Numbered from the stretch's first letter, positions 1 through 12,308 are shown. The stretch: 12,308 bases of DNA from Rotaria sp. (GCA_905250055.1 CAJNOF010000061.1:326484-338791), one strand, 5' to 3'. Notes: a model not told the origin generated them from the sequence alone. Numbers and translations are program-made.

Positions 1-1650
1 TATGCGGATTCTTACTTTAATCAAAGGAACTCTTTTTCGCACAATTAAATCTACAGCGAATACTTTTTTGAAGTAATTCAGCAGATCAAAAGATAAATGG
101 AAGCTCCAAACGGACTAAATGTCTTTCACGCGTACTATGAAACAATAAAAAATACAAATTCATGAGAATATAAATAATTATGGGAACCAGTCCCAAAAAA
201 AAGATTAATCTACTTTGAGCATTTACAGCTGTTTTCGTTGGAAAATATGATCATAAACATTTCTTACTATCTTTTACGAAGAAGAAAATGACTTATATAA
301 CCGTTTCAGAGACTATTTAATGTGAATAACGCTTGGAAACGCTGACTAGACGTAAAAACAGCAAGAAAAGTGATGATCACGTTTGTTCTTGCCGATTGTC
401 ACCGTTTCCTAACAGAACGGGTGATTATGGCAGTTTAAACGGCATTTTCAGCGGTTCACTTCTTCCTGGGAATACCTTGATAAAGACAAATCGAGGGAAC
501 CCAACTTTGATGAGCATGTTAAAAGGATAATAGATCACAGTAAATTTTCACGAAATTCGACTATTGACTCAGTTCCTTCTTCCTTGACCGAATCAGTAGG
601 ATTCTAGCGAAAGTACTCAGAAAGTGAGGTAGAATTGAGTAAAACTTGAAAATATACCAAGAATATCCTTTTCTGAATGCATCCGTTCAGACTTCATCTC
701 GTGAAATACTATTGTCGGATCCTTCATAACATTCTATTTCTAGAATAATGACGTTATTTTCCAACTGTATAAAATTTCTCGTTTGTACTAAGGGTGCCAT
801 AGTACCCTCAGCCACATAAACAGTCACTTATACCACACTTCTTTCACAAATATACCAGAAAACCAATATTTGTTTAATTTTAGGTGAAAATTATCAGTTA
901 TAGACTTTTTCTTATTTTCTATATTTTACGGTTTTTGGATCTGTCTGATTGTGTTTGTGCATTTTTTAAGTTTGTCTGTCATGTGAGATTGGATTTTGTT
1001 TGTTGTTATCTAAAGCCGAGCTTGTTAATGGTTTGAATGGCTCAGTTACCGATATTTTTTTCATTATGGTCTTACTTTTACCGTTTTTTTTAGTCAATAT
1101 TACTTTTGTGATAGTGTTGGCACTGCGCAAAAATTTCTGTCACTCAGCTTGCTGTGTTTGGCTTGTGCAATGATACGTTATCAAATTGAAATCAACAGTA
1201 TGAGAAAAATATATCGTCTTCTATATTGAAGGAGAAAGATACTCAGGTGACTTCATAAATTCGAGAAGAGTAAAAAGAAAAAGGGAATTTTCCATATAAA
1301 TGCTTTAGCACACAAACAGAGCAGACCAAACGTATGCAGAATAACGAATCAATAATCCACTTCAGGAAGAACGCGGATGTGAGTGTGGGAATAGATTTTA
1401 ACAGAATAGTGATATCCACACGTACGTCACATCTCATATTTGTGTTCTGTAATTATTATTATTAACGCGAAGGAATACTTAAAAAGACCACGTGTTGTGC
1501 AATAACAACATCGGCGGTCGTAAGAACGACAAATACAGATTCTTTTCTCTCTTTTTTTTATAGAGGCAATCTTGCACAATGTTTTGTAAAAACGTATTTC
1601 ATAGTTTCCTATGTAATACCTCTTTCATATTCTTGCTTTTTCCACATTTT

Positions 1651-1656: not shown

Positions 1657-1704
1657 TAGGCATTGTTTTTCACATAGTCATTTACATTGTTATTAACCAA
1701 CGAT

Positions 1705-1901
1705 ATGCATTCATCAACTACAACTGCAACGACATCAAATAAAGGAGGTTCAAGTCCATTATATCGTATACCACCTTATTATTATATACATGTTTTGGAT
1801 CAAAATACAAATGTAACACGACTTGAAGTTGGTCCAAAAACATTTATTAAACAAGACAATGAAACAGTGACAGTTGGACCAGAAAAAATGATAACAGTAC
1901 C
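1705..1901 (+). CDS. MVP: Major vault protein, exon 1 (M..ITVP, phase-2 end)
   Basis: ATG at 1705; translation [52 protein letters not shown] matches the MVP N-terminus ([32 protein letters not shown]). Donor is cc|GTACGT at 1902. Confidence 0.88.
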
Positions 1902-1963
1902 GTACGTATATTATTCTAGAAGAAAAACATAAAAAATAAATAATTATTCTAAATTATGTTTAG

Positions 1964-2132
1964 ACCACGTCATTATTGTGTTGTTGAATCGCCTGTCGTA
2001 CGTAATGAAGCAGGAGTAGTTCAATTTGATGGAAATGGTCAGGCTAAACTTGTTCATGCTGACTTGGATGTTCGTCTTGCACAGCCTGATCAAGCACCAT
2101 TTCCACTTTATCCCGGAGAAATTCTTCGTCAA
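1964..2132 (+). CDS. MVP: Major vault protein, exon 2
   Basis: Acceptor is tgtttAG|a at 1962-1963. Completing the Pro codon gives [11 protein letters not shown]...[22 protein letters not shown], matching MVP PPRHYC...[21 protein letters not shown]. Donor is caa|GTATAA at 2133. Confidence 0.88.
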
Positions 2133-2202
2133 GTATAAAAATCAATATATTTTTTGTTCTGTACTGTTATGTTTTCAATATTTTATTGTTTTCTTTTTTC
2201 AG

Positions 2203-2511
2203 CCAGTTACTCCTCTAAAAGTTGTACCAGCTAATTCAGCCTTACGTTTGAAAGCTATACTTGATTTTGATGATGAGACAACAAAAGAAAAACGTCATGC
2301 TGGTGATGAATGGTTATTTGAAGGACCAGCTACATATATTCCACGAAAAGAAGTTAGTGTAGAAGAACAAATTCGTGCAACTGTTATTGGTCCGAATCAA
2401 GCTATTCGATTATGTGCAAAAAAAGAAATCATTGATCGAACAGGTCAACAACGTGTTACTGGTGAAGAATGGTTAATTAAAAAAAATGGTGCTTATTTAC
2501 CACTTGCATAT
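2203..2511 (+). CDS. MVP: Major vault protein, exon 3
   Basis: Acceptor is ttttttcAG at 2201-2202. [50 protein letters not shown] matches MVP repeat domains. Donor is tat|GTAAAT at 2512. Confidence 0.88.
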
Positions 2512-2573
2512 GTAAATGAAATTCTTTTTTCATCAAAGTTTTATTTTATTAATTAAATATTTCATTGTTCTAG

Positions 2574-2840
2574 GAAACCGTTCTTGCTGTTGAAAATGCT
2601 CATGTTTTAACAGATAAAAAAGCTCTTCATCTTCGTGCTCTAAAAACTTTTACAGATGATTTTGGTAAACAACGTATGAATGGTGAAGAATGGCTAATAA
2701 CTCTTAAGGATACTGAAACACATATTCTTAGTGTTTATGAACAATTAGTTGCTGTTGTTGATGTAATAACACTTAATTCACGTCAATATTGTGTTATTCT
2801 TGATCCAGTTGCTGATGGAAAACCACAATTGGGAAAAAAG
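2574..2840 (+). CDS. MVP: Major vault protein, exon 4
   Basis: Acceptor is gttctAG at 2572-2573. [46 protein letters not shown] matches MVP ([42 protein letters not shown]). Donor is aag|GTTTGT at 2841. Confidence 0.87.
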
Positions 2841-2862
2841 GTTTGTCATGATAGTTTTATTT

Positions 2863-3431
2863 TGTGAAACACAATCTAACAGGAATGTTGAAGTATATGG
2901 GTAGAAATTTGAACTTCTACTCCGCCCGCACAGACATGACGAATATCATAGCAATAATTCATTGCAGATAGAGATGTAAGCCGATGCATTTCGACTCAAC
3001 AATTTTCTTAATTTTGAGAGATTCTGAAATGAAAAAAGAAAAAAAAGGATAGTAGAGAACTTATTGGCAAGTAACCAGACAGTAACATTTTCGAAAACTG
3101 ATTTGAGACGTCAAAAATTTTCAAAAAAATCAAACATCTATTTTTGTGGCACGGTGACGTGACTCAATTGTTAGAGCATTGGCTCAGTCGATCAATTTGC
3201 ACCTGTAATCACAGATTTGACAGTTACGTTAGAAACGGCTCATCACAGAACATGATAGACATTATTCATATATGACCAAAGACTGTTTATCAATAACCTC
3301 TGGTTACAATATATGAACCATTTCCTTAGTACGCTTCTGGAAAAGGATGATGAAGAAATGCATGTACCCAAAATAGATAGAATAAAATAACTTTCATGTG
3401 ATTATTAATAGCAATGGCATCGTGTTTCACA
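2863..3431. mobile_element. 569-bp MITE-like non-autonomous element inside MVP intron 4, with terminal inverted repeats TGTGAAACAC(A/G)AT
   Basis: Left end tgtgaaacacaatc at 2863 and right end atcgtgtttcaca at 3419-3431 are inverted copies. No coding capacity is seen. Intron 4 is 652 bp versus 56-72 bp for the other six MVP introns. A related truncated copy lies at 5880-6060. Confidence 0.65.
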
Positions 3432-3492
3432 TTTTAATCCTGTAGGACTTAAGCTAACAATGTTTTTTTATTTGAATTTATTTCTTGTTTAG

Positions 3493-3677
3493 AAACTTAT
3501 TGTTGGTGAAAAATCATTTTTTCTTCAACCAGGTGAAAAACTCGAAAATGGTATTCAAGATGTTTTCATCTTGGGTGAAGATGAAGGTGTTATTCTTAGA
3601 TGTATTGAAGCATTTCATGATGAACAAGCTGGTACTAATAGAAATCCTGGTGATCGATGGATGATTCGTGGTCCAAC
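3493..3677 (+). CDS. MVP: Major vault protein, exon 5
   Basis: Acceptor is tgtttAG at 3491-3492. [41 protein letters not shown] matches [38 protein letters not shown]. Donor is ac|GTAGGA at 3678. Confidence 0.85.
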
Positions 3678-3744
3678 GTAGGAGCTTGATTTGTGTTTTG
3701 TTTTTGTTTTTGAAAATTAAAAAATCTTAATCTTTTATTTTTAG

Positions 3745-4711
3745 TGAATATATTCCTCCAACACAAGTTGCAGTTGTGACACGTCGAAAAGCAATACCTT
3801 TAGATGAAAATGAAGGTATTTATGTTCGTGATATAAAAACAGGTCGTGTACGAGCTGTTATTGGTGAAACTTATATGTTAACACATGATGAAGAACTTTG
3901 GCAAAAGGAATTACCTAAACAAGTTGAAAATTTACTTACACGTGATCCATTAGCTGAACGAAATATGCTAACTCGTAATCAAGCATCGGATAGACCTCAA
4001 CAACACGCAGCTACTACTATACAAGCAGCAAGTACACTATCAAGTACAACTGCACGTGATAATTCAAAATTAGTTACTTATCGTGTACCACATAATGCTG
4101 CTGTACAAATTTATGATTATAAATCTAAAAAAGCACGTATTATTTTTGGTCCAGAACTTGTCATGCTTGGTCCAGATGAACAATTTACATTACTTTCATT
4201 AAGTGGTGGCAAACCAAAAAAACCTAATCAAATTCAAGCACTTTGTTTACTTCTTGGTCCTGATTTTTTTACTGATGTTATCGTTATTGAAACAGCTGAT
4301 CATGCCCGTCTATCACTTCAACTTTCATATAGTAAATTGATGAATTATAATTTATTTAATATTCTTTATTTTACTTATTTAGATTGGCATTTCGAAGTGA
4401 AGGATATGAAGGATGAAAAAGAAACAGAAAAACTTTTTTCAGTTCCTGATTTTGTTGGTGATGCAGCTAAAGCAATTGCATCACGTATTCGTGGTGCTGT
4501 TGCTGGAACTCAATTTGATGATTTTCATAAGAATTCAGCACAAATTATTCGTGCGTCAGTATTTGGTCTTGATGCAAATCAACATATAAGAGATCAATTT
4601 GTTTTTCCACAAAATAATCTCGTTATTACATCAATTGATATTCAAAGTGTTGAACCAGTTGATCAACGAACACGTGACGCACTTCAGAAAAGTGTTCAAT
4701 TAGCTATTGAA
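3745..4711 (+). CDS. MVP: Major vault protein, exon 6 (shoulder/cap-helix region)
   Basis: Acceptor is ttttAG at 3743-3744. [152 protein letters not shown] is near-identical in motif order to vertebrate MVP. Donor is gaa|GTATGA at 4712. Confidence 0.9.
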
Positions 4712-4767
4712 GTATGAATAAATTAATTGATTTATTAGATCATAAATATATATAATAAATTCTTTAG

Positions 4768-5008
4768 ATAACAACAAATTCACAAGAGGCTGCAGCTAAA
4801 CATGAAGCTTCACGTCGTGAACAAGAAGCTAAAGGTTTATTAGAACGTCAGCGTATTAAAGATGAAGCCGAAGCTGAAGAAGTTCGAAAACAACTTCTTC
4901 TATTGCAAGCTGAATCAGCTATTGTTGAAATAACAGGTCAAGCTAAAGCTGAAGCACAAAGTCGTGCTGAATCTGCTCGAATTGAAGGAGAAGCCGGTGT
5001 TGAACAAG
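4768..5008 (+). CDS. MVP: Major vault protein, exon 7
   Basis: Acceptor is tctttAG at 4766-4767. [38 protein letters not shown] matches [52 protein letters not shown]. Donor is caag|GTACAA at 5009. Confidence 0.87.
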
Positions 5009-5080
5009 GTACAAAAAAAAACATTATAATACATATAGTAAATATTTAAATAATGAATTTTTTTTTCTTCTTTTCTATAG

Positions 5081-5481
5081 CTACTCTTAAAGCCAAAGCC
5101 GCACAAATTGAATCTGAATCTGAATTATTACGTCTAAAACTAGCACGTGAAGCTGAAATAAAATTTTTACGAGAAAAAAACGAATTAGAAATTAGTAAAA
5201 AAGCTGAAATCTCAAGAATTGAAACAGAAAAATTTAAGTCACAAGTTGAATCCATTGGTGCATCAACAATACAAGCCATTGCCACTTCTAGTTCAGATAC
5301 ACAAGTTAAACTTTTACAAGCACTTGGTCTTCAATCAATGTTAGTTACTGATGGTCATACGCCAATTAATCTTATGGGATTTGGGCAAGCTCTTTTAGGT
5401 GATTTTGCTGGTAGTCCAATTAAAAAAAGACGATTATCAACTGGTGTTTCGAATAAATTTAATGTCGAAGAAACTGAGTAG
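5081..5481 (+). CDS. MVP: Major vault protein, exon 8 (C-terminal coiled coil; stop TAG 5479-5481)
   Basis: Acceptor is ttttctatAG at 5079-5080. ATLKAKAAQIESESELLR..KFKSQVESIGASTIQAIA..TQVKLLQALGLQSMLVTDGHTPINL matches MVP [61 protein letters not shown]. Confidence 0.87.
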
Positions 5482-6060: not shown

Positions 6061-6819
6061 GATTAAAGTAAAAAAACGGATGGAGAAGTTCGTCTCAAGA
6101 TACATGAAAATACAACGATCATCGTGTAAATAGCTATGATAACTACATTGTATTTCAGATTTCAATGCCGTAGAGATTACTTTAGTAGCTTTTCTAGTGG
6201 TTTCGATGTTGGTCTATTATTGAATCGACGACTAGCTCCTTTTTCGGGCTTATCTCTTTTGAATTATGTTCTGATGCATCTCACTGATACGTTCATTCTC
6301 TTAAAACTATAGAATATTCCACTATAATCTTTAATTTCGGTTGGAACAACTTTTTTTCTCGTAGTTGTCAATATGTTTATAGAAGAATTTTTTCAGGAGT
6401 TGGCTAATTCGAATTCGAATATAAATGAAGAGCCTGTTGCTTGCTATCGATTCGAGAATAAATGCTAAAGTAGAAATCGAAACGTTTATGTACAATAGAT
6501 ATAGATAGGAGTAAATTGAGCTTTTATTCTCTTGCATTTATAATTTATATATAGGGGTGAATTGCAAAATTATTGTACCGTTATATTCTTATATGTAAAA
6601 GTTCAATATCTCGAGTTCTTCTCAGTCAATCTCTATGATTTTTTCAGGTTAGATTTCTCTAAGAAGTCCTCACTACCACACAAAAAAATCACAAATTTCA
6701 TCTTGAACTAATCTAGAGATATTGGATGCGTAACGTATAATAGATCGATTTTTACTGTCGCCTATAAGGAAAAAGTCATATAACCGATTGGTTCCTTCTT
6801 AATTGAACTTCAGAATTTT

Positions 6820-6862
6820 GCGGGCGTGGGTGTGGATGGGTGTGGATGGGGTGTGGGTGTGA
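6820..6862 (+). repeat. Degenerate telomeric-type repeat tract, G-rich on + strand (GGGTGT/TGTGGG-like with GGATGG variants)
   Basis: gcgggcgtgggtgtggatgggtgtggatggggtgtgggtgtga. Confidence 0.75.
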
Positions 6863-6885
6863 GACTTCTCCGGATGTCGGTACTC

Positions 6886-6960
6886 ACCCGCACATCCACG
6901 CCTACACCCACCCACATCCACACCCACCCACACATCCCACACCCGGCCACACCCACACCC
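6886..6960 (-). repeat. Degenerate telomeric-type repeat tract, C-rich on + strand (ACACCC-like); head-to-head with 6820-6862
   Basis: acccgcacatccacgcctacacccacccacatccacacccacccacacatcccacacccggccacacccacaccc. The reverse complement is a (GGGTGT)n-like tract that includes gtggatgtgggtgggtgt. Confidence 0.78.
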
Positions 6961-7285
6961 AAAATCAAACTCATAATGTTTTCGTTGTTTTCTTTCGTTC
7001 TCACCCAAAAGAAAAAAAGTAAAGTATCCAACGCATTGGCACTCAAATAATTCAATAGATGAAAAACAAACGAAAATTGGACAGAATAACAATGCAATTG
7101 CTAATGTTATTGGCAACCATATAATTAACTGCAACTAGGTAAAGTTTGTCTTAAGTGTCAACGAAACAAAAAAAACACATCCACATTTAATGTCGTAGAA
7201 AAATTTAAAAAAAGAAAGCCAACATCGAATTTATTTAGAAAAAACGAACTTTATTAAAATAGCAATTCACTGCGCAGTATACTCT

Positions 7286-7351
7286 CACTAATCGACGATC
7301 TTGTCCTATTCTTTCCAGGTTCTTGTTTTTCTTTACTTTCAGACAAGATTC
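7286..7351 (+). repeat. Left terminal inverted repeat of the 7286-8713 element
   Basis: See the element call. It begins CACTA. Confidence 0.75.
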
Positions 7352-7665
7352 CTGTATTCAGGCAAGATTCTTTTCGACAGGAAAGTAAAAAGAATCTTGT
7401 CTGAATTTCAAGATGACAAGAATCTCGTCTGATTAATCAGAAATAAAAGAATCAGGCAAGAATTATAAGATATTCAAGATATATTTAACGTTCAGACAAG
7501 ATTCTTGTTAAAAGAAAAGATAAAGAATCTTGTCTGAAGTTCAAGATCAAAAGAATCTTGTCTGAAAATTATGACAAAACAGAAACTGGAAAGAAATATA
7601 AGATATTTTAAATTTCTTAGTATTCAGACAAGATTCTTATGATAGAAAAGAAAAAGATTCTTGCC
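7338..7665. repeat. Left subterminal array: at least 9 copies of CAGACAAGATTCTT and its complement, several paired as hairpin-forming inverted repeats, interleaved with TTCAAGAT spacer motifs
   Basis: Examples: ttcagacaagattcttgttaaaagaaaagataaagaatcttgtctgaa at 7490-7537 (15-bp stem); aagaatcttgtctgaa at 7390; aagaatcttgtctgaaaa at 7549; cagacaagattctta at 7624. Confidence 0.8.
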
Positions 7666-8439
7666 AGCTTTTCAAGATCAACAGCACGTGATGTCGTCTT
7701 TGTATGATCAAATATATAAAGGCAATGTCTGAATGTTATTTATTCATTATTTCAATTGGATGTATAGAAAAAGTTTCCATTCGATATCGAGAAAACAGTG
7801 GAATATATGATATCTTTTTTTCCATTGTTTTCAGAAAACTTACACTTATTAAACACATTTCGATATTTTACCAATCCACATCTTTCTATTTTATTTTTTT
7901 TAGATTTTCTTTCATTATCCACAAAAGTGTTTTTTTAATGGACGAAGAAAATATTGATTCCATCAAAAAATTATTGTTTGATAATGTTCTTGGTAGTATA
8001 GGTAATATCTATATGCACTTTATATCTTTTTGATTAAAATACTATCTTTTTTAGTCATCACCACATACAGATAAACAACGTCGATGGCGTGCTAAGAAAA
8101 AAGATCAACATCATCGTACTCAATTATCTCTACATCATTTACTAATTGAACAAATTGTAAATAACTTATTTTAATCGAGCTAGCTCAACACACAACGATG
8201 ATGAAGTTTGAAAAAATAAGTATTTTTTTTGATAATTAAAATTTTGTTTTTTTTTGTATTAAAAACTGACACTGCTTTAACAACATGTGAAATTAAAAGT
8301 ATTTTTTTGTTTTTTTTTACATTTGTTGTACATAGTGTGCAAAGCTTATAATAAAACGATATGAAAAAAGAGTAATAATAACCTACAAAAGGCTTTTTAA
8401 TGTGACCAGAATTAGGCACGAAACACAAGAAATAAGAAA

Positions 8440-8661
8440 CAGACAAGAATTTAAGAAAAAAAGAATCAGGCAAGTACATCAAGAAAAATAAGAATCAGAC
8501 AAGAATTCAAGAAAAGCAAGAATACAAGAATCTTGTCTGGAGAAGAACTTCTTGCCTCACCAGCCAAGATTCGGTCTACACGAATCTTGTCAGAAAGGCA
8601 AGATCAGTTTTTTCAGGCAAGAATCTTGTATAGAAAGAATAGAAAAAGAATCTTGTCTGAA
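8440..8661. repeat. Right subterminal array of the same motif family (AAGAATCTTGTCTG, CAGGCAAGAATCTTG, AGAATCAGACAAGAATT variants)
   Basis: aagaatcttgtctgg at 8526; caggcaagaatcttgta at 8614; aagaatcttgtctgaaaacc at 8648; cagacaagaatttaag at 8440. Confidence 0.75.
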
Positions 8662-8713
8662 AACCAAGAAAAACAAGAACCTGGAAAGAATAGGGCAAGA
8701 TCGTCGATTGGTG
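8648..8713 (-). repeat. Right terminal inverted repeat of the 7286-8713 element
   Basis: Reverse complement matches 7286-7351 with 4-5 mismatches. Confidence 0.75.
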
Positions 8714-8748
8714 CTATTATGGATTAAACAACAGAGTTTTCGTTTAAA

Positions 8749-10104
8749 ATGAATCAACAACGACGGCGACAAATGGCTGAAAATTACTTAGTGATTTGGG
8801 TCGACGGCAATATCAATATGGCAAACGAACATTGCCAAAACACACTCACACAATTGTGCGGTGTTGTTAATGAAGTCAATCAATGCACCACCGCCGAAAA
8901 ATGTATTGAGACGCTTCAAGAAAATAGTGAGAAGACATCATTTGTTATCTCCTCTGGTGCACTTGGCCAACATCTCGTACCAGAAATTCATGGCATGCCA
9001 AAATTAGATGGCATTTATATCTTCTGTGGCAACAAACAACGCCATCAAGAATGGGCCAAAAATTGGTCAAAAATTAAAGGCGTTCATACATCCATTAAAT
9101 ACATCTGTGAAAAACTGGCAGTGGCTATTAAACAATGTGATCAAGATCAGGTAACTGTTAGTATTATTGACATCAATGAAGGAGATGCTAGCGAAAATCT
9201 CAATCAGCTAGAACCATCCTTCATGCATACACAAATATTCAAAGAAATTCTCCTTGATATGGATCATGGCCGACAAGCCATCAAAGATTTGGTCAAGTTC
9301 TGTCAAGAAAAATATCAAGGCAATCGTAAAGAACTCAAATTTATTCAAGAATTTGAACGTACCTATCAATCAACATTGGTGATATGGTGGTATACACGCC
9401 AATGTTTTACAAACAAAATGCTTAATCGAACATTATGAACGCTCGATAATGACATTATTATCCGAATGGGTTTTTATTTATGTGATGTCCATCGGCAAAT
9501 TAAAGATTTACACAGCAAGCAAATCAATGAATACCATGGTAAGACATTTCTACTTTATCGGGGGCAAGGATTATTGACGGCAGACTTCGAAAAAATCACG
9601 AAAAACAAAGGTGGACTTATCTCGTTTAATAATTTGTTATCCACCAGTAAAAATCACGATGTATCCCTCGGGTTCGCCAAGGACGCCTTAGAAGCAACAG
9701 ATAAGGTCGGTGTTCTTTTTCGAATGACCATCGACCCCACCGAGTCTTCGACTCCATTCGCTTCCATTCGAGAGCTGAGTGATTTCGCACAAGAAGATGA
9801 AATTCTCGTCTCTATGCATACAGTTTTTCGAATTGGTGACGTTCGAGAAATTGACAAGAAAAGTCCACTTTATGAAGCGCACCTTAAACTTACAGTAGAT
9901 GATGATCAACAACTCCGTCGATTAACCGATCGTATACGAGAAGAAACATTAGGTAGTGCTGGACGGTATCGAATGGGTCAATTGCTGCTCAAAATAGGTC
10001 TATTCGCCAAGGCCGAAGAATTATATACCGCATTACTAAAACAGGCATCGGATGACAGTCATAAAGCATTTATCTATCGTCAGCTTGTGGCCTGTGGGGG
10101 GTGA
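8749..10104 (+). pseudogene. Intronless gene for an N-terminal ~230-aa unknown domain fused to an R-S-E-clade ADP-ribosyltransferase domain and the first helix of a TPR region; interrupted by one in-frame TGA (9436-9438) and 3'-truncated at a telomeric-repeat junction
   Basis: ORFs 8749-9438 and 9466-10104 are in the same frame, separated only by the TGA at 9436-9438 (...KMLNRTL*TLDNDIIIRMGF...). ART motifs: FLLYRGQG (Arg codon 9559-9561), LLSTSKN (S-T-S 9640-9648), AQEDEILVSMH (E-x-E 9793-9801), with spacing typical of cholera-toxin-like/C3-like ARTs. The C-terminal ...AEELYTALLKQ..KAFIYRQL is TPR-like and stops at LVACGG immediately before the telomeric repeats. Confidence 0.8.
9436..9438 (+). 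other. In-frame TGA stop inside the ART gene; reading frame and conserved sequence continue on both sides (likely CGA(Arg) to TGA)
   Basis: tta TGA acg ctc gat aat gac att att atc cga atg ggt. The downstream frame continues into the ART catalytic domain without a frame shift. Confidence 0.8.
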
Positions 10105-10210
10105 GTGAAGAAAATATTGACAGTCACATCCTAATTTTATACAAAAACATTGATAAGATTCACAGTTTTGTTATCAATCGAATATTAAAAAAAAATTTAT
10201 TAGACAGTAT

Positions 10211-10318
10211 AGGGTGTGGGTGTGGGTGTGGATGTGGGTGGGTGTGGGTGTGGGTGTGGGTGTGGGTGTGGGCGTGGGTCTGGGTCTGGGTCTGGGGTGT
10301 AGGTGCGGGCGTGAGTGT
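10211..10318 (+). repeat. Telomeric-type (GGGTGT)n tract, G-rich on + strand, about 108 bp with variant units (GGATGT, GGGTCT, GTAGGTGCGGGCGTGAGTG tail)
   Basis: agggtgtgggtgtgggtgtggatgtgggtgggtgtgggtgtgggtgtgggtgtgggtgtgggcgtgggtctgggtctgggtctggggtgtaggtgcgggcgtgagtgtga. The hexamer TGTGGG is the repeat reported for bdelloid rotifer telomeres. Confidence 0.85.
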
Positions 10319-10335
10319 GAAACAAGATGATAGTA

Positions 10336-10360
10336 CACCCACACCCACGCCCACACTCAC
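10336..10360 (-). repeat. Short C-rich telomeric-type tract (ACCCAC...) opposing the 10211-10318 G-tract
   Basis: acccacacccacgcccacactcac. Further short G-rich (10398-10414 gggtgtgagtgtggggt) and C-rich (10441-10450 acccacactc) remnants follow. Confidence 0.7.
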
Positions 10361-10999
10361 AATTTATCATTGGATCTTGTTGATCAAGTTGAATAATGGG
10401 TGTGAGTGTGGGGTATAGTCTTGTGCTCACTGACTCACATACCCACACTCTTAAGGACTTTAGGAGTGCATAAAAAAAAACTATCTGAGTTTTCCGGAAG
10501 CTCAAATAATGCATCACTTCCAGATCTTATATGTCCCTGTAGAAACTATCACGAATGATAATCGAAATGTCTAAGAGAAACATAGATAAACGCATAATTT
10601 TCTCGGCACAGATGAGCAGTTTTAAGCTTCGTGGAGAAGCTCTTTCGTCGTTAGTTATGCATCGATATTCTCATCCTCTAATGATTCCTATTTGGTTTGA
10701 TCTATAAAAACCATTCTCTTCGTTTTTATCCGATGTTCTTCAGGTAGTCACAAACTATCAGAAGGATCTGTAAATATACGAAAAGAAAACATGTGATCGT
10801 TATTGCTTAAAATTGTGGTCCTAGATTATGAGAGCGAAATGACCGGTTTTTTTGTGTGTTTACACGCGTTTTCAGCCCTGATAATTGCTTGATATATATC
10901 ATGCACAATTTGTGCAGTTGTTGCCATTCACGTGTTGACATCTATGCATTAGTTTCAAAATGAACATGATCGAATCCATTAGTGATCTTGGTTTCTTTT

Positions 11000-11009
11000 A
11001 TTTATTTCG
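11000..11009 (-). terminator. Candidate polyadenylation signal (AATAAA on - strand) for the E2 gene
   Basis: The + strand ttttatttattt reads aaataaataaaa on the - strand, about 185 nt downstream of the E2 stop codon. Confidence 0.25.
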
Positions 11010-11189
11010 AAAGATAAAATAGTTTCATCTATGAAGAGAATTTTCAACTACAAAACAGAATTCTTGTTTATAGAAGACGAAAAAATAGAGAAGGTTTATA
11101 TTTGAAAGATAGATATCAGGAGGAAAAAAGCTTTTGTACGTAACAAAGCTATTTTCTGTCCAGAAAGAAAAAAAAATATCGGATTATTT

Positions 11190-11278
11190 TTATGATCGAG
11201 GTAATCCATTCTTCTGGATCATTGCTGTCGCCTTTCGTTCATATTCAGCTCGGTTTTGTATAAATTCTTTAGCGATGT
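11190..11278 (-). CDS. Ubiquitin-conjugating enzyme E2, exon 3 (C-terminal helices; stop TAA 11192-11190)
   Basis: Acceptor is ttgttatAG at 11280-11279 on the - strand. DIAKEFIQNRAEYERKATAMIQKNGLPRS* aligns with E2 C-termini ([27 protein letters not shown]; RAD6-type NKREYEKRVSAIVEQ). The total CDS is 531 nt, about 176 aa. Confidence 0.7.
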
Positions 11279-11330
11279 CTATAACAAAGTAAACAGCAAA
11301 AGAGGCAATAGGCTACTATTCAGAACAAAC

Positions 11331-11459
11331 CGGCATTCACTGGACCATCTTCAGGTTTAGGATTATCAAGAGCGTCGACAATAATCTGAAGAACTTCTAT
11401 CAAAGTTGTTTGATTGTTCCACGTTCCAGTAAGAGTCAGACGATTATCACATAATCGAT
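11331..11459 (-). CDS. Ubiquitin-conjugating enzyme E2, exon 2 (catalytic Cys): NRLCDNRLTLTGTWNNQTTLIEVLQIIVDALDNPKPEDGPVNA
   Basis: Acceptor is ttgtgtAG at 11461-11460 on the - strand. HPNVNEK|NRLCDNRL matches HPNINSNGSICLDIL including the active-site Cys. W and ...LL.DPNP.DP are conserved (DNPKPEDGP). Donor is g|GTTTGT at 11330. Confidence 0.72.
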
Positions 11460-11547
11460 CTACACAATAGAAAAATAAATATAAAACTGATGATATCATT
11501 AGCAACCTTCATTTATTTGCTATTTCTCAACAATAAATTTTGCTTAC

Positions 11548-11860
11548 TTTTTTCGTTAACATTTGGATGATAGATTGGTGTCACTATGACCACTTCAGGT
11601 GGTTTCATTGGATATTCTGGTGGTAGATGAATTTCAATTCGAAGAGCATGATTTTTATAGATATTCGATGTTAGTTCTAATCGTCCAATGATAACATTTT
11701 GAGCATAATCCTTGGGCAATTCATCTTGCGAATAGTCGAATGAAGAACTTTCATAAGTAAACTTGCCTTTTTTTAGTTTATTATTTTCACCCAATAATTT
11801 GACATCAGTCAATTCTCTCCAAAGTTTCTTATTTAACGGACTCGGAGCAGCTCCTGCCAT
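11548..11860 (-). CDS. Ubiquitin-conjugating enzyme E2 (UBC fold), exon 1: MAGAAPSPLNKKLWRELT...HLPPEYPMKPPEVVIVTPIYHPNVNEK
   Basis: ATG at 11860-11858. LPPEYPMKPPEVVIVTPIYHPNV aligns with the canonical E2 core FPxDYPFKPPKVxFxTxIYHPNI. Donor is AAAA|GTAAGC at 11547-11542 on the - strand (phase 1). Confidence 0.75.
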
Positions 11861-12308
11861 AGAAGGAATAAAAATAATACAATCTGAAAAGAATACAATA
11901 CAAATAACGTCTCTGTACATTTGTTAGATTTAAAGAGAGAATTTCATGATGATTGATTGTATTTTTGGAAATTTCTGCATGTGTGTATGGGCTTTTTGTT
12001 CTATGAAAGAAATGAAAAAAGGTAACTCTTTATGATTAATGTACATGTATTTGAAAATTTGCAAACAATCTTTGCATCACACTTTCAAATGGCCCCTCTT
12101 CAGTTGATGATTTGTTTTTTTTCGTTTCTTCTTGCTATTTAAGTCTCTGATTTTTTGAAAAAAATATTCATTCGGAATACTTAAAAGTTGATACTCTTCA
12201 CTGAAAAAAAATGGTACGATACAGAACCAAAAAAGATATTTTGAACGAAAAAAAGGTTTCGTACATAGTACGGAATCTAAAAAGGTTTCGAATTCGTTGC
12301 AATTCTCT

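Follow-up and report, generated by a model that had tools for sequence, protein, structure and literature searches.

Convergent telomere-repeat units around a truncated ART-TPR gene in the bdelloid rotifer Rotaria as candidate scars of break repair

Genomic organization of the locus

The window, that is, the whole stretch of DNA analysed here, comprises 12,308 nt of the genome of Rotaria sp. Silwood1 (GCA_905250055.1, CAJNOF010000061.1:326484-338791), in which the space between a major vault protein (MVP) gene and a ubiquitin-conjugating enzyme (E2) gene holds short arrays of TGTGGG, the telomere repeat of bdelloid rotifers (PMC7943196, PMC8494291). The arrays are paired in units, each formed by a G-rich arm, a short spacer and a C-rich arm. 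On the plus strand the layout is a G-arm, a spacer of 18-23 nt, a C-arm, a cassette of 3.25 kb, a second G-arm, a spacer of 14-17 nt and a second C-arm. The cassette carries a truncated copy of a gene of the ART-TPR family (ADP-ribosyltransferase and tetratricopeptide repeat). The telomere-like features of the window are listed below, where L003 denotes another assembly of the same species.

6819..6863, plus strand: G-arm of the left unit, 45 nt, a telomeric G-strand pointing to the junction
6864..6881, no strand: spacer of the left unit, acttctccggatgtcggt, present among the fetched loci at this locus only
6882..6963, minus strand: C-arm of the left unit, 82 nt, with the G-strand on the minus strand and pointing to the junction; no mirror copy of the G-arm
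10211..10319, plus strand: G-arm of the right unit, 109 nt, from sequence reading and Tandem Repeats Finder
10320..10333, no strand: spacer of the right unit, aaacaagatgatag, homologous to the L003 spacer agacaagatgacag
10334..10361, minus strand: C-arm of the right unit, 28 nt here versus 97 nt in L003; it replaces ancestral flank
10396..10450, no strand: small old convergent unit, with 17-18 nt of G-arm, 21 nt of spacer and 13-16 nt of C-arm
10088..10108, plus strand: short telomere-like G-strand stretch, gtggcctgtggggggtgagtg, 21 nt, exactly at the point of gene truncation
10109..10210, no strand: AT-rich segment of about 100 bp from the short G stretch to the right G-arm, with no match elsewhere in the fetched loci
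1373..1435, no strand: doubtful degenerate convergent unit in the BLTP1-MVP interval, gcggatgtgagtgtggg, 24 nt, atccacacgtacgtcacatc

Tandem Repeats Finder returned period-6 arrays at 6822-6861 (GGGTGT), 6891-6961 (CACACC), 10212-10319 (GGGTGT, 18.2 copies) and 10335-10361 (ACACCC). These coordinates agree to 1-5 nt with those of a preliminary description of this DNA, and the order of the tracts given there was also read directly from the window. The sequence TGTGGGTGTGGG, with one mismatch at most, occurs 18 times in the window against 0.01 occurrences expected, a count that none of 200 shuffles matched. The preliminary description had further identified the repeats with the bdelloid telomere unit and both boundaries as head-to-head, and the two observations stand. 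The boundaries have the form expected for joined telomere-extended ends, and genes are truncated at them.

Folded as single-stranded DNA, the left unit forms a hairpin of -44.5 kcal/mol (z -5.45) and the right unit one of -29.9 kcal/mol (z -4.94). The hairpin of the small unit at 10396-10450 also beats its shuffles (z -3.34), while that of 1373-1435 is no better than shuffled sequence (z -1.37), which leaves this last unit uncertain. Precursor families of miRNAs (MIR9776, mir-466 and others) were considered and rejected, as the best Rfam match scored 34 bits against gathering thresholds of 61-100 and the matches are generic hairpins. In the segment 10060-10480, which includes the AT-rich stretch 10109-10210, a search of Rfam at E<=10 gave neither a hammerhead ribozyme nor any other family.

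The G...G order at 10088-10210, in which the 21-nt stretch is followed by the main G-arm, resembles what successive additions to a former end would leave; this segment gave no signature of a retroelement. The 21-nt stretch, the small unit at 10396-10450 and the doubtful one at 1373-1435 are absent from the preliminary description.

Orientation of telomere-like tracts

The orientation of neighbouring tracts was surveyed in about 130 kb of fetched Rotaria DNA, covering a few loci of two species. The detector collects 9-mers no more than one mismatch away from the telomere repeat and pairs tracts at most 80 bp apart. Nearly all adjacent tracts were convergent, with a G-tract followed by a C-tract (GC) in 30 cases and with CG, GG and CC in 2 cases each. 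The pairs other than GC are split arms or the gap between neighbouring units, and no independent divergent pair was seen among them. With alleles and orthologs removed there are about 14 clear independent units, and degenerate ones besides; most apparent single tracts also proved on inspection to be degenerate convergent pairs. As a control, 120 unrelated metagenome contigs with (TGTGGG)4 gave 182 GG, 189 CC, 24 GC and 6 CG pairs, and the detector is thus without bias to GC, since the control contigs give mostly GG and CC. The contigs L026, L041, L096, L112 and L131 and other Ga03079xx contigs have about 48-50% G+C and dozens of same-orientation TGTGGG-like tracts, and their composition clearly sets them apart from bdelloids.

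In the sampled Rotaria loci the units reach a density of several per 10 kb. They measure about 30-235 bp, with arms of 12-127 nt and spacers of 4-40 nt that are unrelated to one another. No target-site duplications (TSDs) were visible by inspection at the units, and no internal sequence is shared among them. The two arms of a unit are unequal and are no mirror copies of each other (127 versus 94, 109 versus 28 and 45 versus 82 nt).

A series of G-arm, spacer and C-arm is its own reverse complement, and for this reason every interval between two units looks capped, with a C-tract at its left and a G-tract at its right. The preliminary description had presented the cassette as a special, doubly capped fragment. 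This cannot be maintained, given that convergent units are dispersed and recurrent in Rotaria intergenic DNA.

Variant strings at the arm ends

It had also been proposed that the two tracts next to the cassette, which share unusual variant units, have a common origin. The strings are present in both tracts: the junction end of the right arm reads ...GGGGTGTAGGTGCGGGCGTGAGTGTG, and that of the left C-arm, in reverse complement, ...GGGTGTAGGCGTGGATGTGCGGGTGAGT. They are not private to these tracts, however. GTGGATGTGGGTGGGTGT is also found in an independent unit of R. sordida (L015:207), TGTGGATGTGGG in at least six other units, and GTGTAGGTGCGGG at L013:2854-2869, where the variant string of R. 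sordida is GGGTGTAGGTGCGGGT. The common origin of the two inner tracts was therefore rejected, because the strings, including the variant tail, recur in unrelated units of two species.

In 13 of 34 arms, GTGAG or GGTGA is found no more than 12 nt from the junction, versus 7 of 34 at the flank end. These junction-side variants may be due to chance, given a handful of variants of the transition type; they may instead come from read-through of the telomerase RNA, as in the TERC-ITS loci (ITS, interstitial telomeric sequence), or from a (TCACCC)n-type tail.

The enclosed ART-TPR pseudogene and the inserted element

The segment between the left and the right unit includes three main parts, the second of which is an element with terminal inverted repeats (TIRs).

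6964..7286, plus strand: native upstream region of the ART-TPR copy, contiguous with the ATG in the short haplotype of L003
7287..8713, no strand: non-autonomous TIR element of 1.43 kb, with Tandem Repeats Finder arrays inside
8749..10086, plus strand: fragment of an ART-TPR family pseudogene that keeps codons 1-446 of about 720-790 and has a TGA in frame at 9436-9438

The open reading frame (ORF) of 229 aa at 8749-9438 matches Rotaria sp. Silwood1 proteins exactly, and 8749-10086 gives weak Pfam matches to ART and ADPrib_exo_Tox. The family has 1588 homologs, the best of which (83%) is from the same species, and the closest relatives of the copy in the cassette are paralogs elsewhere in the genome, at 81-87%. 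Nucleotide homology to one paralog, at the Silwood-1 locus L017, covers 8722-10087 of the window, and the homology to the family ends at 10086/10087, which corresponds to residue ~446 of 722-787, so that the TPR half is gone. The in-frame TGA stands where the relatives have Arg. Judged from its sequence, the enclosed gene is a decayed, 3'-truncated pseudogene fragment of a native family and no functional member of it, because homology covers only residues 1-446 and is interrupted by the stop codon. The gene had looked foreign in the preliminary description, an impression that does not survive the number of bdelloid homologs, the best match within the species and the family-typical upstream sequence.

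The upstream region, 6964-7286, is weakly similar to that of the paralog at L017 (77% over 56 nt), where a convergent unit is located about 430 bp upstream of the ATG. We considered whether the units found about 400 bp upstream of ART-TPR genes belong to a mobile gene cassette and discarded the idea, as the outer flanks show no relation to one another and the spacing can be explained by short intergenic distances. The ART-TPR genes (the window copy and the paralogs P0001-P0004) align without introns over more than 700 codons, and MVP and E2 have several short introns; the intronless structure would agree with an origin of the family by retroposition or horizontal acquisition.

The TIR element is delimited by an inverted repeat of 73 nt at 7279-7351 and 8648-8720, which is 89% complementary and has the terminal sequence CACTAATCGACGATCTTG..., and its interior contains many repeats of about 28 bp of the AAGAATCTTGTCTGAA type. 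It is present in the window and in L001, a further assembly of the species, and L003 is without it, with a clean junction, so that the insertion is polymorphic in this species.

Other copies of the locus in Silwood-1

The same architecture was found in the two further assemblies, L001 and L003. The segment and its tracts are present in L001, which is 98.8-99.4% identical to the window and has an identical right unit. Its left G-arm has 127 nt, versus 45 in the window, and its C-arm 12 nt more, so that arm length is polymorphic.

L003 has a shortened form. Its left unit is identical to that of the window, and its short haplotype (7618-8095) has an ART ORF of 29 codons which runs straight into a G-arm of 117 nt. 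The spacer that follows, agacaagatgacag, is clearly homologous to the aaacaagatgatag of the window, and the C-arm of 97 nt is followed by 240 bp which are missing from the window (METRTESNLCSICNK...) and which hold the beginning of a pseudogene of the B-box zinc-finger type, with a stop in frame. At the boundaries of the arms, the difference between the two forms thus amounts to 240 bp in the flank and 1.25 kb in the gene. The start region of the ART gene is 94% identical between L003 and the window, and the flanks are 98-99.5% identical.

L003 7618-8095 has no counterpart at 8836-10361 of the window. A separate contig of L003 equals 8735-9983 of the window and is scaffolded close by via single-N gaps; the isolate of L003 thus probably carries both the long and the short form. 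The haplotypes have a common junction and differing outer boundaries of the arms, which would be explained by later deletions with one end inside a telomeric arm.

Rotaria sordida and other bdelloid loci

Homology to R. sordida covers 10362-12198 of the window at about 87% and ends exactly at the edge of the C-arm. In L003, the R. sordida homology extends about 55 bp into the 240 bp specific to that assembly, and because R. sordida retains this part, the longer right flank is ancestral and was lost in the haplotype of the window. All R. sordida copies have the small unit at 10396-10450, which evolves in the same way as the flanks; therefore, it is older than the split of the species.

The place of the cassette is taken in R. 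sordida by a full-length ART-TPR gene of the same orientation, upstream of which lie two more convergent units. Its protein is only about 38% identical to that of the window copy, and for this reason it is a different paralog and not a positional ortholog. There is no MVP gene near the R. sordida E2 block, whose neighbours differ from those of the window. In L014 of R. sordida, an ART-TPR gene is duplicated in tandem together with the B-box remnant and the small convergent unit (9938-12912), and a second copy of window 10362-11072 lies at 10646-9938.

A protein search with one MVP exon returned only metagenome-derived fragments. The metagenome contigs with MVP (L002, L007-L012) have Sad1_UNC upstream and an inverted MVP copy or other genes downstream; they show no similarity to the flanks of the window and give no information on an empty site. 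In two of them, of non-Rotaria bdelloids (L002 9122-15341 and L010 8987-15143), a second MVP copy follows inverted about 2 kb on, a palindromic pair which is missing from the Rotaria locus.

Flanking genes and genomic setting

The units are embedded between core genes, with the following flanking features.

1687..5481, plus strand: MVP gene of several exons (Pfam Vault, Vault_3, Vault_4, MVP_shoulder), the core of the left flank
10362..10395, plus strand: start of the right-flank block conserved with R. sordida, the tail of the B-box zinc-finger pseudogene region
11190..11860, minus strand: E2 gene of three exons (Pfam UQ_con), the core of the right flank

MVP is annotated as a protein of 904 and 911 aa in L001 and L003, respectively, and the splice reconstruction of E2 gave 176 aa in exact match to a Rotaria sp. 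Silwood1 protein. In the two other assemblies the locus is more than 100 kb away from both contig ends and, to judge from the assemblies, it is interstitial and gene-rich, outside the subtelomere. L001 (13561-13660) and L003 (9997) have N gaps within about 50 bp of the right end of the window (~12262-12308), which suggests sequence that is hard to assemble just past this end.

Origin of the convergent units

The observations to be accounted for are the topology of the units, their orientation bias, the gene truncations at arm boundaries, the polymorphism among haplotypes and the absence of transposon and Athena hallmarks. We consider, with moderate confidence, that each unit of G-arm, spacer and C-arm is a repair scar, left where both ends of a broken molecule had been extended with telomeric repeats and were then joined. 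After a break, both 3' strands would receive TGTGGG-type repeats, for which the simplest source is telomerase, acting to form very short neotelomeres; the extended ends would then be fused head-to-head by end joining, with 4-40 nt of filler as the spacer. The tracts would from then on be unstable, hairpin-prone microsatellites, which gain or lose repeats and seed further deletions. At the present locus, the ART-TPR copy would have lost its 3' half at a break and later gained its stop codon, and the TIR transposon would have entered this haplotype. Synthesis of the arms by telomerase, the end-joining nature of the joins and the order of these events are inferred.

The 3' extension of two ends, followed by joining, is the only simple process that gives G-then-C and never C-then-G. 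Fold-back copying was discarded as the source of the pairs, since the arms of a unit are unequal and no mirror images, which argues for independent synthesis of each arm. Loss of sequence is seen at the arms: the ART ORF of L003 is cut after codon 29, the homology of the window stops at 10086 and the 21-mer follows, and the right-flank edge of the C-arm falls at two points 240 bp apart in two haplotypes. The units are stably inherited, as they recur in three assemblies and the small one predates the split from R. sordida. In Adineta vaga, signatures of neotelomeres have been found at deletion breakpoints (PMC13564844), and in vertebrates the action of telomerase on the two sides of a break has been invoked for head-to-head telomeric stretches at sites of break repair (PMC8537989). 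Read as repair scars, the units in the MVP-E2 intergenic space of the window would number three, possibly four, and the '3.3-kb cassette' is the interval between two neighbouring ones.

Several points weigh against the units being repair scars. For none of the units was an empty, pre-scar site found, which leaves the insertion at a break an inference, and it is not obvious why telomerase-extended ends should be regularly fused again. The census covers about 130 kb from a few loci of two species, and one 20-kb locus of R. magnacalcarata and the MVP loci of non-Rotaria bdelloids have essentially no units. Some variant strings (GTGTAGGTGCGGG..GTGAGT) are common to the junction-proximal ends of arms, and these variants could mean a template other than the canonical one of telomerase. 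In addition, TGTGGG as the chromosome-end repeat of Silwood-1 rests on the literature for A. vaga and other rotifers.

The topology of the tracts would also fit the capture of a fragment, in which a free linear piece from an ART-TPR locus elsewhere, capped at both ends, was ligated between the telomere-healed ends of a break between MVP and E2 by two telomere-telomere fusions. Such a capture, to which the preliminary description pointed, would be a special case of the scars. The enclosed copy is indeed no positional ortholog of the R. sordida gene beside E2 (~38% identity), its closest relatives are the paralogs elsewhere in the genome (81-87%), and the lack of MVP near E2 in R. sordida means that synteny was broken somewhere near the units. 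We nevertheless hold such a capture to be unlikely. Two convergent units in succession, which are common, suffice to make the interval between them look capped, and other ART-TPR loci (L017, and L013 of R. sordida) also have a convergent unit 360-500 bp upstream of the ATG; moreover, an ART-TPR gene in the same orientation occupies this position in R. sordida, so that the family may be native to this site, with exchange by recombination, and no empty MVP-E2 site was found. A lower probability still is given to synthesis of the arms by the reverse transcriptase (RT) of an endonuclease-deficient Penelope-like element of the Athena/Terminon type, primed at both ends of the break on RNAs ending in (ACACCC)n or (TCACCC)n; this would give two inverted copies with extreme 5' truncation, what is left of them being the spacer. 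Terminons do have a hammerhead motif followed at the 3' end by (ACACCC)n or (TCACCC)n and are attached to G-rich ends (PMC6431247), endonuclease-deficient Penelope-like elements can prime at double-strand breaks (PMC3846280), and many arms end at the junction side in GGGTGAG(T), the complement of the start of a (C)TCACCC tail. Yet the hammerhead motif is lacking from 10060-10480 at E<=10, no Rfam family reached its gathering score in 128 kb of Rotaria loci, and the spacers have no common or element sequence. Among the ORFs of the window that were listed and scanned there is no RT-like domain, the enclosed ORF being ART-TPR, and canonical Athena additions have repeats of the same orientation (PMC6431247), whereas the units here are convergent.

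A uniform polarity, with GGGTGT... at the 5' end and ...ACACCC at the 3' end as in a TIR element, together with the dispersal of hairpin-forming units in intergenic DNA, would agree with the units being mostly internally deleted copies of a DNA transposon, or miniature inverted-repeat transposable elements, with telomere-like TIRs, the cassette being then ordinary DNA between two insertions. This appears improbable, and slightly more so than synthesis by an Athena-type enzyme, given the absence of TSDs visible by inspection and of shared internal sequence, the unequal arms of 12-127 nt, and the fact that arms adjoin truncated coding sequence with haplotype-specific loss of flank, which is unlike cut-and-paste insertion. 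Least probable, and in our judgement very much so, are plain GT-rich microsatellites or palindromic slippage unrelated to telomeres, or artefacts of assembly. Arm lengths do vary between haplotypes and many units are short and degenerate, but the repeat is that of bdelloid telomeres, a hexamer with a clear periodicity of 6 nt (PMC7943196, PMC8494291), and slippage would not give strict convergent pairing. An assembly artefact is excluded because the junctions recur in three independent assemblies, and one of them in a second species.

Significance

Bdelloid rotifers survive massive breakage of their DNA and have many rearrangements and foreign genes, while footprints of the rejoining at the level of the sequence are scarce. 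If the units are repair scars, they would form a readable, datable and genome-wide record of past breaks, through which the part played by telomerase in repair could be approached directly. A comparison of desiccating with non-desiccating species would then become possible, and it could be asked whether horizontally acquired genes are flanked by scars. Only tentatively do we extend the proposal to a routine: desiccation-tolerant Rotaria may mend breaks by adding a few telomeric repeats to both ends and fusing them, leaving a dense record of scars, with the cassette as one stitched piece. Under such routine mending, the scars would mark deletions, gene truncations and rearrangements, and possibly pieces of stray or foreign DNA stitched in. 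Should the units instead be a transposon family or a local oddity, they would be a curiosity of Rotaria intergenic DNA. The claim of a unique capped foreign cassette is weakened, and it is the broader convergent pattern that deserves attention.

Comparison with known systems

In the searchable literature we found no description of the pattern of convergent units; the primary papers on Athena and Terminons lay outside this search, so that an earlier mention is possible. The nearest likenesses are of three kinds.

The short telomeric stretches of bdelloid neotelomeres and Athena-Terminon additions (PMC13564844, PMC6431247, PMC3846280, PMC2861651) share the repeat and the clade with the units of the window, and their repeats also lie at breakpoints. 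In these end structures, short interstitial telomeric stretches occur beside genes of the TPR type, and host genes are caught between pieces capped by repeats. They are, however, terminal or subtelomeric, of one orientation, and have retroelement sequence (hammerhead motif, RT) between the repeats, whereas the units of the window are convergent, without retroelement sequence, and placed in interstitial, gene-rich DNA.

Fusion-type ITSs, such as that of human 2q13 (PMC8537989, PMC6410037), have the same order of G-strand followed by C-strand, which is read as a telomere-telomere fusion. In the classical cases whole chromosomes were joined, and subtelomeric sequence flanks the ITS on both sides. 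The Rotaria units differ in that their flanks are core genes (MVP and E2), their arrays have 12-127 nt, and several are found within 4 kb.

The vertebrate TERC-ITS loci of mouse lemur and Xenopus (PMC8537989) resemble the Rotaria units in their facing short telomeric stretches at an internal site without TSDs. Their head-to-head form is rare (3 of 41 loci), and most short ITSs are unidirectional (PMC8537989), whereas the sampled Rotaria tracts are almost only convergent. Moreover, the Rotaria units occur every few kb, always have a non-telomeric spacer and coincide with gene truncations. On this comparison, the units appear to work both like the rare ITS insertions made by break repair on both sides and like fusion-type ITSs in miniature.

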